A stretch of 58,492 nucleotides of DNA, taken from an uncultured Atopobium sp. Lineage in GTDB: Bacteria; Actinomycetota; Coriobacteriia; Coriobacteriales; Atopobiaceae. Where the stretch lies: NCBI GenBank assembly GCA_938028635.1, contig CALIZK010000032.1, positions 1-58,492 on the forward strand. The letters are read 5' to 3'. The notes beneath the pieces were generated by a model. It was not told where the DNA came from, did not search any database, and worked only from the letters and a program-made list of their open reading frames with translations. The position numbers and the translations under genes are program-made. Of this stretch, positions 32,092 through 36,600 are shown one piece after another (the stretch's first letter is position 1; every line of letters starts with the position of its first letter).

Positions 32092-32436
32092 CTAGGTAGC
32101 CTCAATCTCAGCAAGCTCAATTTCTAAGCCTTGGATAAGTTCGGTTTTCTCGCTAGAACAGTAAGGGCATATGCGACCATACGTTACCGTGGCGTACGTT
32201 TTATTGCACGATAAACACTGTGTTAGAGCTGGTACTTCTTCAATTTCTAGCTGAGCTCCATGTAACAGCTCCGTGCGATCAGCTGCCCAGCGCCAAACAT
32301 CCAACAAATACGTTGGAACAACTCCAGATACCTCACCTAGCTGCAACTTTACGCGTGCAACAGAGGTGAGGTTGTTCTGTTTTCCCAGGTCCTCAACCAT
32401 ATCTATGAGGTAAAACGCAATTCCCAGCTCATGCAT
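32092..32436 (-). CDS. hypA: Nickel metallochaperone HypA
   Basis: N-terminal MHE Ni motif, GEVSGV, CxxC..CPxC Zn site. Confidence 0.93.
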   Translation of the reverse strand: MHELGIAFYLIDMVEDLGKQNNLTSVARVKLQLGEVSGVVPTYLLDVWRWAADRTELLHGAQLEIEEVPALTQCLSCNKTYATVTYGRICPYCSSEKTELIQGLEIELAEIEAT

Positions 32437-32459
32437 GTCAATTGATTTCTGTGAGCGCG

Positions 32460-35400
32460 CTAGCTTGAAATACCAGTACTACCCGCAGAAACGGGATTAC
32501 CAAGCTCATCGGTTGTGATGTGTGACTGAGGTTTAGGAGTCTTTGTTTTTCTCGCGGGGTTCTTAATAATCTTTACCGCACGTTTTCCAACATACGAGAG
32601 AATCTTTCCTGCCTTATGCTCTGCGGCAACCATATCTGAACAGTGAGGATTGTCTCGGAACAGGTGAATTGCATCAAACTCGCAGCGTGTAGTACAGAGA
32701 CCACAACCAATACACTTATTTGCATCAACAATTGAAGCGCCGCACTTCAAGCAGCGTGCGGTCTCGATTCTGATTTGCTCTGGCGTAAAAGTATGGCTAG
32801 GATCTGTCCAGTTATGCCTGATGTTTTTAACTGAATCGCATGCGGAACGCTGACGACCTGCGTGATCGTATCCACAAGACTCAACTGCTGCGTCAGATTT
32901 ATCAAGCTCAACATAATGGCGCTGGTTACGGCCAATAGTCAAAGAAGAGCCTTTCTGCACAAAACGATGTAATGAAACAGCAGCTTCATGACCTGCGGCA
33001 ATAGCATCGATAACAAAGCGAGGACCCGTGTACACGTCTCCACCCACAAAGACATCGGGCTGAGCAGTCTGATACGTCTGGGAATCAGCGCACGCAAGAT
33101 TGCCTCGCGTAAGCTCAACCGCCTCTCCCTCCAAAAGACTTCCCCACTCAACGGTTTGTCCAATAGACAAGATTACTGCGTCTGCCTCAAGATACATTGT
33201 TTGCTCGTCATCAAAACAAGGCGAGAAACGCTTGTCCTTGTCAAAAACACGGGTACAACGCTTAAACGTCACGCCGCAAACATGTCCTTGCTCATCTGTG
33301 TCAATAGAAGCTGGTCCCCAACCATTTTTGATTGACACGCCATCTTCCTGCGCTTCTGTAATTTCTTCCGGCAGTGCGGGCATTTCTTCTGGCTGCTCAA
33401 GGCACACCATGGTGACCGACCCTAATCCACAACGAGCAGAAACTCGAGCAGCATCAATAGCAACATTACCGCCGCCAATGACCACCGTCTTACCGTTAAC
33501 TTCATGCTGTGGATGCTCGGTAACAAAATGCAAGAAATCAACAGCAGAAATAACGCCGTCTGCGTCTTCTCCAGCAATAGTGGCCTTTCTACCGCCCTGG
33601 CAACCAATGGCAACATAAAAACCAATAAAGCCTTGAGCGCGCAGCTCATCAAGAGTTATGTCTTTTCCTACTTCGACGCCACAGCGAATTTCAACGCCCA
33701 TTTCTCTAAGGACATCAATCTCTGCGGCAACAACGTTCTTCTCGAGCTTGTAAGAAGGAATGCCATATACCATCATTCCGCCAGGAAGAAGATTCTTCTC
33801 AAAAACGACGGGGTTGTAACCGCGCTCTGCCAGGTAATATGCACAAGACAGGCCGGCTGGGCCTGCACCAATAATGGCAATTTTCTGGTTGAATCGGCCT
33901 CTATTTGACGGGATAACTGGCTCTGGAATAAAGCGATGTTCTGCCTCTAGATCTTTTTGAGCAATGAATTTCTTAACGTCATCAATGGCTACTGCCTGGT
34001 CAATAGTTCCTCGTGTACACGCTGCTTCACAACGTTTATTGCACACGCGGCCACAAACAGCTGGGAATGGATTTTCTTTTTTGATCAGCTCAAGCGCATC
34101 TCGATAGCGACCCTCAGCTGCCATACGCAGATAACCCTGAACAGAAATATGTGCTGGACAAGCAACTTTACAAGGAGCAGTACCGGTATCGTGACACTCA
34201 ATACGGTTGTTATTCTTATAATTCCAATCCCAATCAGACTCTCCCCAGAACTTATCATCGGGAAGATCCTGCGTTGGGTAGGAAATTTTGCCTTTCTTTG
34301 TAGGAAGCTTCTGACCTAATTGAGGGGCTCCAGCTGGGCAAACTTCAACGCATCCACCGCAAGCAACACATTTTTCTTCATCAACGTGAGCCACAAAAGC
34401 AGAACGAGACAAATTAGGCGTATTAAACAGCTGAGAAGTTCTGAGTGCATAGCAAACATTTACGTTGCAGTTACAAATAGCAAAGATCTTATCTTCACCG
34501 TCGATGTTAGTAATCTGATGAACAAAACCGTTTTTCTCGGCCTTTGTACAGATATCGATAACCTCGTCGTAGGTGATGTAGTGGCCTTTTCCTGTTTCTA
34601 CGCAGTAATCAGCCATATCTCCAATGGCAAGACACCAATCTTCTGGGTCGTCAGCGCAGCCGTCTCCACGAACACGCTCAGCAAGGCGACAAGAACAGGG
34701 AGTTGCAGCGTATCTATCGTATTTCTTGAGCCAATGCGAGATATGCTCAACGGTAACAGTGTGATTGACCTGCTCAATAGAGCGCTCAACAGGAATAACG
34801 TGCATTCCAACACCCGCGCCACCTTCAGGAACCAGCTTGGTGACATTTTTGAGCGGTAAATAGGTCATACGCTCAAACAAAGAAGCCATCTCGGGATGTT
34901 CTTCGAGTTGGCGCTCGTTCATCACGGTAAACTCTGCGGAGCCGGGAACAAACATGGGAAGAACATACTGCTTTTGCTTGCTCTTGTTTTCCCAGTTGTA
35001 CTCTATCATGCCCTTTACAGACAGGGTATCGAGGATAGGTTGAAGCTCTTCTGCAGTTTTGCCGGTTCGCTTGCAAAGCTCCTCTAAAGTAACTGGCTGC
35101 CGCACCTTCATGTGTTTGGTTACCGCAGCCTCTTCCTCAGTCATAATTGCTGCAATTCCCCAATATTCTGGGTCATCTTTTACAATTTTGTGACCGAGGC
35201 GACTGGTAATTTTTTGAACTTCATCTCTTACAAGGGGCTTAAATTGCTCAGAAGAAGCTGGTCCAGGCTCATTTGGATCTACGGTTTTGTAATGAACTAC
35301 CTCGTCATTTTCAGTAATGTGATTTTGAGCGAGTATACGAACAGGACCACCAGCAGGGTTAGTAGTTGGCAATACATTTCTGCGTGCAATTTCTTCATCA

Positions 35401-35512: not shown

Positions 35513-36187
35513 TTACTGACTGCTTTTCCACTCAGCAACTTTGCGAGAAAGCCATTCAGTCCAAGCGTCTAATCCTTCCCCGGTTTTGGCAGAGAAAGGA
35601 ATAACAAGTGCCTTTGGATTTCTGAGGGCTACATTTTTCTTGAGTTTCTCCAGATCAAAGTCAAAATAAGGTGCTACGTCTATTTTGTTAACAAGTACCA
35701 CATCACAAACCTGGTACATCAGTGGGTACTTCAGCGGCTTATCGTCGCCTTCGGGAACTGAAAGAATGGTGACATTTATGCCGGCACCGGTGTCAAACTC
35801 TGCCGGACATACCAAGTTTCCAACGTTCTCTAAAAAGATAAGGTCTACATCTCCTGCGTTAAGACCTTCAAGACCCTGAGCACACATATGCGCATCAAGG
35901 TGACACATGCCGCCCGTGTGCAGCTGAATGGCTTTCACGCCCGTTTCTGAAATAGCAGCAGCATCAACATCTGAATCAATATCAGCTTCCATAACAGCGA
36001 GCGAAAGCTTGCCATTCAGAGCGGCAATGGTCTTTTTAAGGGTGGTTGTTTTGCCAGAACCAGGAGAAGACATAAGGTTTACCAGCAAGGTTCCCTTTTT
36101 CTTCATTTCTTTCCTTAACTGATCTGCGCTTTTCTCGTTAGCTGCAAAAACACTCTGCTTAACTTCAATGACGCGATACTCACCCAT
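35513..36187 (-). CDS. hypB: Nickel-insertion GTPase HypB
   Basis: SSPGSGKT, GGMCHLDA, ENVGNLVCP, EGDDKPLKYP, NKID. Confidence 0.95.
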   Translation of the reverse strand: MGEYRVIEVKQSVFAANEKSADQLRKEMKKKGTLLVNLMSSPGSGKTTTLKKTIAALNGKLSLAVMEADIDSDVDAAAISETGVKAIQLHTGGMCHLDAHMCAQGLEGLNAGDVDLIFLENVGNLVCPAEFDTGAGINVTILSVPEGDDKPLKYPLMYQVCDVVLVNKIDVAPYFDFDLEKLKKNVALRNPKALVIPFSAKTGEGLDAWTEWLSRKVAEWKSSQ

Positions 36188-36216
36188 AAGCTCTCTCCAC
36201 AGTTCCGATGCGTACG

Positions 36217-36600
36217 TTAGTGACCCAACAGATGTGCGGCATGTGCAAGGCCAACGCGAATCAGCGTTGTGACATGCTCATCTGCAAGTGAGTAGATGAC
36301 CTTTCTGCCATCTCTTTTTGCATTGACAAGGCCACGATCGCGCAAAAGACGCAGCTGATGAGAGGTTGCTGACTGTGAAACAGAAAGCATTTCCTGCAGC
36401 TCTGTGACGCTTTTCTCGCCATTTACTAAGGCACCCAAAATCTGGAATCGCGTGAAATCAGACAGTGCATCAAAAATCTGAGTTGCATCATAGATGATGT
36501 CGTCGTTTACCAGGTATTCGTTCAGCTTCTGATCAGAAACGTAATCGCACGTAGAATGAGTGTGCTCGCACTGTTCAGAATCGTGGGAATGACTATCCAT
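36217..36600 (-). CDS. ArsR/SmtB-family metal-sensing repressor
   Basis: SQSATSHQLRLLR HTH; alpha5 D-x-H-x10-H-x2-H site; His/Cys-rich N-terminus. Confidence 0.92.
   Translation of the reverse strand: MDSHSHDSEQCEHTHSTCDYVSDQKLNEYLVNDDIIYDATQIFDALSDFTRFQILGALVNGEKSVTELQEMLSVSQSATSHQLRLLRDRGLVNAKRDGRKVIYSLADEHVTTLIRVGLAHAAHLLGH

Follow-up and report, generated by a model that had tools for sequence, protein, structure and literature searches.

HypA and HypB are nickel chaperones that take part in maturing [NiFe] hydrogenase and, in the case of Helicobacter pylori, also urease. Kronen et al. (2023, mSystems, PMC10134865) described IsrA, an isoprene-induced oxidoreductase of 901 amino acids (aa) and putative isoprene reductase of Acetobacterium wieringae ISORED-2, which is encoded in an operon of five genes (isr) consisting of isrA, two hypA, hypB and a ferredoxin gene. 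According to the same account, full-length homologues of IsrA, called "clade 9", occur in Firmicutes, Actinobacteria and other phyla, and the neighbourhoods of 988 homologues gave values of 0.73 for HypA, 0.56 for HypB, 0.21 for TetR and 0.4 for DUF5692. Six cysteines of IsrA are described there as topologically close, with two CxC motifs among them (C180/C182 and C254/C256). This site was likened to P-type and double-cubane clusters, and the authors proposed IsrA as a target of nickel delivery with "cluster V" as a possible nickel site. The host, A. wieringae, is reported to possess also carbon monoxide dehydrogenase/acetyl-CoA synthase (CODH/ACS) and lactate racemases. As recently as February 2026, a preprint still asks for the characterisation of isrA-like proteins. 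In the present work we analyse a stretch of 58,492 nucleotides, hereafter the window, from an uncultured Atopobium sp. (GenBank assembly GCA_938028635.1, contig CALIZK010000032.1, positions 1 to 58,492 of the forward strand), in which a gene for a large iron-sulfur (Fe-S) flavoprotein lies between hypB and hypA.

Gene order and co-occurrence give strong support to a functional link between HypA/HypB and this flavoprotein, also in genomes without any other known client. Set against the published description of IsrA, the flavoprotein very probably belongs to the IsrA-like "clade 9" family. The pairing of HypAB with such a flavoprotein and the proposal of nickel at its six-cysteine site (Cys6) were already published in 2023 (PMC10134865), and the locus is a further member of that class. 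A preliminary description of this DNA had presented the flavoprotein as an uncharacterised nickel client; the link to HypAB holds by gene order and co-occurrence, while the novelty of the class does not.

Layout of the cassette

Four co-oriented genes, all on the minus strand, occupy the gap from rpoC (41215-36785) to rpsL (31983-31555), between the rpoC terminator and rpsL as first described. The cassette and its parts are as follows.

32088..36217, minus strand: variable cassette hypB-flavoprotein-hypA, 4130 bp, with borders taken from the cassette-free sister locus L127
35513..36187, minus strand: hypB, a G3E GTPase nickel chaperone without N-terminal metal-binding tail (TIGR00073, 256.7 bits)
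32460..35531, minus strand: longest open reading frame of the flavoprotein gene, GTG start, 1023 aa
32460..35465, minus strand: the same gene from its ATG start, 1001 aa; Fe-S flavoprotein, very probably IsrA-like ("clade 9")
34452..34697, minus strand: Cys6 site, C279, C281, C300, C353, C355 and C360, with invariant E332, G335 and H338 in between
34338..34370, minus strand: N-side ferredoxin motif CxxCxxCxxxCP, residues 388-398, with a PF00037 match at 382-403 and invariant cysteines
32952..34214, minus strand: GltD/NfnB-like core, residues ~440-860 (PF14691, 70 bits; PF07992, 83.9 bits)
32640..32753, minus strand: C-terminal ferredoxin-type cysteines, residues 927-964, with CxxCxxCxxxC at 940-950
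32092..32436, minus strand: hypA of the flavoprotein-linked lineage, with MHE nickel site and CxxC...CPxC zinc site (PF01155, 101.7 bits)

Residue numbers of the flavoprotein refer throughout to the 1023-aa frame that starts at GTG 35531. The protein itself probably starts at ATG 35465, giving 1001 aa, because this codon carries a strong ribosome-binding site (AGGAGAGG), which is missing at GTG 35531, the Atlas record of the flavoprotein begins there, and the near-identical homologue P0002 has 1001 aa, the length expected from the ATG start.

In the family search, Fer4_20 and Pyr_redox_2 covered residues 446-847 and ferredoxin motifs were located at 388-398 and 940-950, in agreement with the initial view of a GltD-like enzyme that uses flavin adenine dinucleotide (FAD) and NAD(P)H and carries ferredoxin motifs. 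Residues 1-380 gave no family match in this search apart from a weak one to winged helices. The named NCBIfam models of the GltD group all remained below their cut-offs (best PRK12771 with 434.7 vs 516; TIGR01316 with 266.3 vs 471.75), and by sequence the kinship with the glutamate synthase small subunit and NfnB equivalogs is one of domains only. A profile search of the PDB returned 9bov_A, 8oh5_C, 9n5u_A and 4ylf_B as best solved relatives, with matches confined to the GltD/NfnB-like part.

Linkage of hypA and hypB to the flavoprotein gene

We found full-length homologues of the flavoprotein in 47 of the 201 genomes sampled from the class Coriobacteriia (54-98% identity over residues ~105-990), all of them in two families; the remaining genomes held only GltD-like matches, with at most 42% identity over residues ~440-960. 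The flavoprotein gene is followed by hypA in all 29 further loci of the class sample and in 12/12 loci of a wider set; in nine of these 12, hypB is found ahead of it or no more than a few kb away. Public genome contigs yielded 80 further loci, in five of which the contig stops within the flavoprotein gene. Among the 75 assessable ones, spread over two phyla, hypA lies directly downstream in 73 with a median gap of ~100 bp, so that homologues are usually accompanied by hypA, a co-occurrence whose check the preliminary description had called for. An adjacent hypB is less frequent (18/80).

Twenty-four of the 80 loci carry titles from outside Coriobacteriia (Oscillospiraceae, Lachnospiraceae, Subdoligranulum, Christensenella, Hydrogenispora, Butyrivibrio, Anaerovoracaceae and two Bacteroidota-labelled metagenome-assembled genomes), and among these hypA is adjacent in 20 of the 22 assessable and hypB in 17/24. 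By comparison, 52 of the 53 other loci that carry hypA are without hypB, the exception being the Atopobium locus L046. The order of the genes varies, with the flavoprotein gene either between hypB and hypA or ahead of hypA-hypB, and the outer flanks show no relation between genera. Collinsella-like loci show TetR and DUF5692 beside the cassette: a DUF5692 protein (PF18948; 410 and 423 bits) adjoins it in L036 (12582-13589) and L044 (12176-13183), and a TetR regulator stands beside DUF5692 in L036 and neighbours the cassette also in L034 and L045. DUF5692 might serve the transport of substrate or metal. Neither DUF5692 nor TetR neighbours were seen in the window or its genome, in a search whose control also gave no match.

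The same pattern was seen in the window's own family, Atopobiaceae, sampled with 61 genomes from 38 genera, 11 of them also present in the class sample. HypA exceeded its cut-off in 34 of the 61 and the N-terminal module of the flavoprotein was found in 33; 32 genomes have both and 26 lack both. Three genomes disagree, all of them incomplete assemblies (completeness 57%, 73% and 83%), and in the one with 83% the gene runs off the contig. Where both genes are present they are adjacent in 29 of 32 genomes. None of the 61 genomes gave a match to the [NiFe] large subunit. Urease alpha occurs in just six, five of these with the cassette, and for this reason urease is unable to explain HypA in the family. 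Across the class sample, 12 of the 47 full-length carriers (nine from the window's family and three Collinsella-like) have no [NiFe] large subunit and a sole HypA that adjoins the flavoprotein; the three Collinsella-like genomes (G041, G110 and G128), identified by elimination, hold a single HypA each.

As a separate observation, most strong matches to the [NiFe] large subunit in other families of the class sample hold one in-frame TGA, which suggests that selenocysteine-containing [NiFeSe] hydrogenases are widespread there.

Other nickel clients in the genome

The genome of the window (1.55 Mb in 149 contigs, 99.76% complete) was searched for other proteins that HypAB could serve. The absence of a [NiFe] hydrogenase large subunit and of urease, noted earlier for the window, extends to the whole genome (PF00374 and PF00449, no match), and no client turned up elsewhere in the wider check for hydrogenase, urease, CODH and LarA. 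LarA (PF09861) and LarC (PF01969) were without match in the whole genome, as was HypD (PF01924), while HypC, HypE and HypF had no separate search. The single Prismane match, considered as a possible CODH, belongs instead to the hybrid-cluster proteins, as a hydroxylamine reductase (755.6 bits), with only 30.5 bits against the CODH model (cut-off 478). On contig C115 (region L001 1483-3075, 3021-3878) this protein adjoins a Crp/Fnr-type regulator and MsrA.

One HypA and one HypB are encoded in the genome. Two further COG0523/CobW-like GTPases are found at C46:21763-22359 and C118:3675-4196, in frames of 384 and 390 aa. Since CODH/ACS and LarA are absent here, unlike in A. wieringae, HypAB have no other known client in this genome, and the flavoprotein is the only plausible one. 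The search covered the listed nickel enzyme families; nickel-dependent glyoxalase I, acireductone dioxygenase and nickel superoxide dismutase, which to our knowledge do not use HypAB, lay outside it.

The flavoprotein-linked HypA and HypB

Both chaperones keep their nickel-type residues, as was noted from the start. HypB scored 256.7 bits with TIGR00073, well over the equivalog cut-off of 121.2, and its GTPase motifs and CH...C site are kept (CH at 95-96, ENVG at 120, VCP at 126, NKID at 167). In HypA, identified by PF01155 (101.7 bits, cut-off 28.9), M1, H2, E3 and the zinc cysteines C74, C77, C90 and C93 are invariant in 25/25 flavoprotein-linked sequences. These linked sequences share a mean identity of 55%, and twelve other HypA copies of the class, not every one of which had its neighbourhood checked, have 51.9% among themselves. 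Compared across the two sets, identity averages 29.9% and reaches at most 41.1%, and FastTree splits them. On these sequence comparisons, the flavoprotein-linked HypA is a lineage of its own.

Collinsella-like genomes retain the linked HypA alongside a second hypA-hypB pair. In two of them the other hypA copy is followed by a second hypB that is 45-47% identical to the window HypB, which fits the finding that most Collinsella loci have hypA without an adjoining hypB. This divergent pair (L145 2068-3160; L146 6762-7876) directly follows tatA-tatC, with topA next in line, and stands apart from any hyp operon.

The N-terminal Cys6 module

A search with residues 95-445 against 1.84 billion cluster representatives retrieved 2073 relatives of the module at E <= 0.001, of which 988 at E <= 1e-10. 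They comprise fusions of ~900 aa (32-49% identity) as well as proteins of 350-430 aa in which the module stands alone; the Atlas also lists clusters of "4Fe-4S binding protein" of the size of the stand-alone module. Stand-alone proteins of ~390-430 aa with the Cys6 module and two ferredoxin motifs occur in L131 (2108-3373, genome G243) and L132 (genome G219). Ten distant relatives of ~900 aa were inspected through their cluster members as a way of naming IsrA among them, and no identifying name appeared.

In 28 diverse module sequences (26-63% identity), C279, C281, R282, C300, E332, G335, H338, C353, N354, C355, C360 and the four ferredoxin cysteines are invariant in 28/28. The unusual N-terminal cysteines pointed out in the preliminary description are thus found at C279/C281, C292, C300, C353/C355 and C360, and all of them are invariant save C292 (the "GC" cysteine), in whose place some sequences have Ser.

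The AlphaFold model (predicted local distance difference test, pLDDT, 74.9) starts with a winged-helix-like fold. Foldseek with the 351-residue N-module gave no match at E <= 0.001 and only winged-helix rows, and in the wide VIA-align search winged-helix matches of ArsR/MarR type covered model residues 8-119 only; the top row had Z 8.6 with a root-mean-square deviation of 9.6 over 102 aligned residues, the other rows Z 8.0-8.4 with deviations of 2.0-5.5, a range of Z that is common. When the Cys6 sub-domain was folded alone (pLDDT 66.5), its best fold match reached Z 3.9 and 0/48,161 chains attained Z 5. Such a null search means that no known fold was recognised, and is no proof of a new fold.

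Proposed metal site and alternative explanations

That the flavoprotein is a client to which HypAB bring nickel seems to us probable; among other grounds, its architecture and Cys6 motif, including the 74-residue spacing, match the published description of IsrA. We propose, more tentatively, that the nickel is bound by the Cys6 cysteines themselves. The fuller explanation would be that the Cys6 site is a heterometallic Ni-Fe-S centre, loaded by the dedicated HypA lineage together with HypB, which hydrogenates unactivated C=C bonds; we put it forward as a possibility that falls short of being probable. In the mechanism that we consider most likely, NAD(P)H would reduce the FAD of the flavoprotein, and electrons would travel from FAD over the pair of Fer4_20 clusters and both clusters of ferredoxin type until they reach Cys6, the place where the substrate would be reduced. 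This substrate would be hydrocarbon-like, and the bond reduced probably a C=C that is unactivated or conjugated, by analogy with isoprene reduction by IsrA. HypB, driven by GTP, would pass Ni(II) to the dedicated HypA, which would load it at or beside the Cys6 site.

Several observations weigh against this proposal. No recognised nickel importer was found in the genome of the window: CbiM/NikM had no match, and the only NicO match scored 18.1 bits vs a cut-off of 27.7. HypA falls below the NCBIfam equivalog cut-off for hydrogenase maturation (TIGR00100, 60.5 vs 88.1), a shortfall that would also fit a separate HypA lineage. A search of the accessible literature for later biochemistry or metal analysis of any member of the IsrA family found none, and IsrA itself entered our comparison by its published description. 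The related genomes are not independent samples; because of this kinship, and because 11 of the 61 family genomes overlap with the class sample, the co-occurrence counts are to be read as a pattern and not as a statistical test.

The alternative that survives best, although we consider it unlikely, is that HypA/HypB act on the flavoprotein while Cys6 is an all-iron Fe-S centre, non-cubane or double-cubane-like, nickel or another metal being delivered elsewhere in the protein or the chaperones having a structural or assembly role. The module does occur in stand-alone proteins without a link to HypA. The 421-aa protein of genome G243 aligns to it with 26% identity (E 8e-12) and keeps the CxCR, the single Cys, the His, the CNC and the last Cys, and this genome, 95% complete, holds no HypA over the cut-off; because of this protein, the Cys6 module can exist without HypA. 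For a related ferredoxin, too, no link to HypA/HypB is reported by Kronen et al. (PMC10134865), and taken with the G243 protein this would allow Cys6 to be a plain Fe-S site. The likeness to P-type and double-cubane clusters noted by the same authors points in the same direction, and our fold searches gave no structural relative from which the type of metal centre could be read. Nickel is nevertheless favoured because nickel-type residues are kept, namely the MHE start in HypA and the CH...C site in HypB. Moreover, six cysteines exceed the need of one cubane, the two CxC motifs are invariant in 28/28 sequences, and we identified no further conserved site as a candidate for the metal.

Less probable still is that HypA/HypB serve another, unrecognised nickel protein or general nickel handling, and that the adjacency reflects shared regulation or co-transfer. 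In its favour, hypA is truly elsewhere in 3/32 family genomes that hold both genes (G206, G229 and G248), L052 and L114, 2 of the 75 assessable public loci, lack hypA within 6 kb, and the client search was limited to the listed families. However, presence and absence are concordant in 58/61 family genomes with incomplete assemblies as the three exceptions, the adjacency persists across two phyla in spite of altered gene order and entirely different outer flanks, and the flavoprotein keeps its separate HypA lineage even alongside a second hypA-hypB pair. A redox-sensing or regulatory flavoprotein that controls or reduces the chaperones or nickel uptake is highly improbable, for the resemblance of model residues 8-119 to ArsR/MarR-type winged helices (Z up to 8.6) lies in the common range of Z, an NAD(P)H/FAD/multi-cluster electron chain of ~900 aa fits catalysis, and in A. 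wieringae the proposed substrate is described as inducing IsrA (PMC10134865).

Flanking genes and history of the cassette

The following features lie around the cassette.

36217..36600, minus strand: arsR, ArsR/SmtB-type metalloregulator with His/Cys-rich N-terminus (NF033788, 90.3 bits)
36702..36734, minus strand: rpoC intrinsic terminator, a hairpin with 14-nt arms (93% complementary) followed by a T run
36665..36692, minus strand: promoter-like site 5' of arsR, CTTACA-16-TATACT, a weak consensus match only
32016..32044, minus strand: promoter-like site for rpsL, TTGACA-17-TAAAGT, 10/12 matches, just downstream of hypA

Promoter-like sites numbered 4 in the scanned region against 6.2 expected by chance; the stretch assigned to rpsL is common to the cassette-free sister loci. 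An inverted-repeat scan found only the rpoC terminator and no operator-like repeat near arsR or hypB.

The preliminary description had counted arsR as the first gene of the operon. The gene is a member of the ArsR/SmtB subfamily (90.3 bits with a cut-off of 55), but it stays between rpoC and rpsL in 4/4 genomes of the same genus that are without the other three genes, and among the loci examined it stands next to the cassette only in the window's genus. It is therefore a resident gene of the rpoC-rpsL gap and not part of the conserved cassette. Similarity to the closest cassette-free sister (L127, genome G088) stops at window position 32087 and restarts at 36218. Because arsR persists in the cassette-free sisters, the variable unit is 32088-36217, with three genes. 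In the sister loci L127-L130 the slot between arsR and rpsL measures ~110 bp in L127, and the remaining loci have there an unrelated open reading frame (164 or 293 aa).

The GC content was considered as a sign of transfer and discarded, the cassette having 46.7% and the genome 48.3% on average; where GC rises nearby, the genes concerned are rpoC, rpsL and fusA. A quick tree of relatives places the genera of the window's family apart, one grouping with Christensenella and one inside the Collinsella group, which hints that the history of the gene may depart from taxonomy by transfer.

Some other features of the window may be recorded. The last ~340 residues of the 1476-aa RpoC (36785-37800) are acidic and far more variable than their neighbours, with 81-92% identity where ArsR has 99-100% and RpsL 100%, and only ~45% in two further species of this genus. 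At 8964-11445, downstream of rplQ and truA, a fused double ATP-binding cassette (ABC) ATPase with a CbiQ/EcfT-type component resembles the energising module of an energy-coupling factor (ECF) transporter. One end of the window (174-3118) encodes the anaerobic ribonucleotide reductase NrdD and its activase, and the opposite end (57563-58380) IspF and part of IspD, of the methylerythritol phosphate (MEP) isoprenoid pathway.

Implications

If IsrA-like proteins are nickel enzymes, a new class would be added to the short list of such enzymes, and, with a Ni-Fe-S centre at Cys6, a further biological Ni-Fe-S catalyst would stand besides hydrogenase, CODH and acetyl-CoA synthase. This would also explain why numerous anaerobes of the gut, rumen and mouth have retained HypA/HypB although they possess neither hydrogenase nor urease, an idea that is already in print, and in Atopobiaceae the IsrA-like enzyme would be the sole reason for keeping HypAB. 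The substrate could be a diene, isoprenoid or conjugated fatty acid derived from the host or the diet, and the polymorphism of the cassette within one genus would provide naturally matched strains for finding it. The contribution of the window is a clean test case: a small, nearly complete genome without other known client of HypAB, in a family sample where HypA tracks the flavoprotein without [NiFe] hydrogenase. Its sister genomes differ by exactly the three-gene cassette. Taken together, these features make metal, site and substrate testable in one small system.

Comparison with known systems

With the HypA/HypB of hydrogenase and urease systems, the window shares the same two chaperone families, whose metal-binding residues are kept in its copies. 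It differs from these systems in that its genome lacks the large subunit, HypD and urease, and in that its HypA is 29.9% identical to other copies of the class.

The flavoproteins of NfnB/GltD/DsrL type (4ylf_B and 5jca_L; the larger 9bov_A, 8oh5_C and 9n5u_A) have the same core of two [4Fe-4S] clusters with FAD and NAD(P)H, and their structures match the profile of the flavoprotein with E-values of 1e-83 to 1e-122; none of them matches its N-terminal Cys6 module. We know of no nickel chaperones for Fe-S flavoproteins of this type. The YgfK-type putative oxidoreductase of E. coli (TIGR03315) is likewise a large GltD-like protein with an N-terminal extension of its own and a C-terminal ferredoxin part, and it matches residues 444-950. 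The score of 274.3 bits is far from the cut-off of 835.3, and the N-terminal 436 model positions remain unmatched.

A Cys-x-Cys beside an Fe-S cluster is also found in the A-cluster of acetyl-CoA synthase and in the CxC-liganded cluster of ferredoxin:thioredoxin reductase, an analogy drawn by Kronen et al. (PMC10134865). We found no similarity to them in sequence or fold (best Z of the Cys6 sub-domain 3.9), and the analogy is one of chemistry only. IsmB (preprint 10.64898/2025.12.29.696961) was considered and set aside as unrelated, as it is of the old yellow enzyme (OYE)/2,4-dienoyl-CoA-reductase type and the available part of the preprint mentions neither nickel nor HypA.

IsrA, as described by Kronen et al. 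(PMC10134865), is the closest system. The window cassette has three genes, with no second hypA and no stand-alone ferredoxin, vs the five genes of the isr operon, and its flavoprotein bears an extra, poorly conserved leader of ~80 residues. The hosts differ as well, the 1.55-Mb Atopobium-like organism being without the CODH/ACS and LarA that A. wieringae is reported to have. They agree in that A. wieringae is described as lacking [NiFe] hydrogenase and hypCDEF, and that no [NiFe] large subunit and no HypD were found in the genome of the window. In both systems hypA and hypB are neighbours of the flavoprotein gene, with TetR and DUF5692 as neighbours in relatives, and HypB is of the type without N-terminal metal tail. 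Both proteins, of ~900-1000 aa, share an architecture of unannotated N-module, ferredoxin motif, Fer4_20, FAD/NAD(P)H domain and C-terminal ferredoxin motif, and in both the two CxC pairs lie 74 residues apart.

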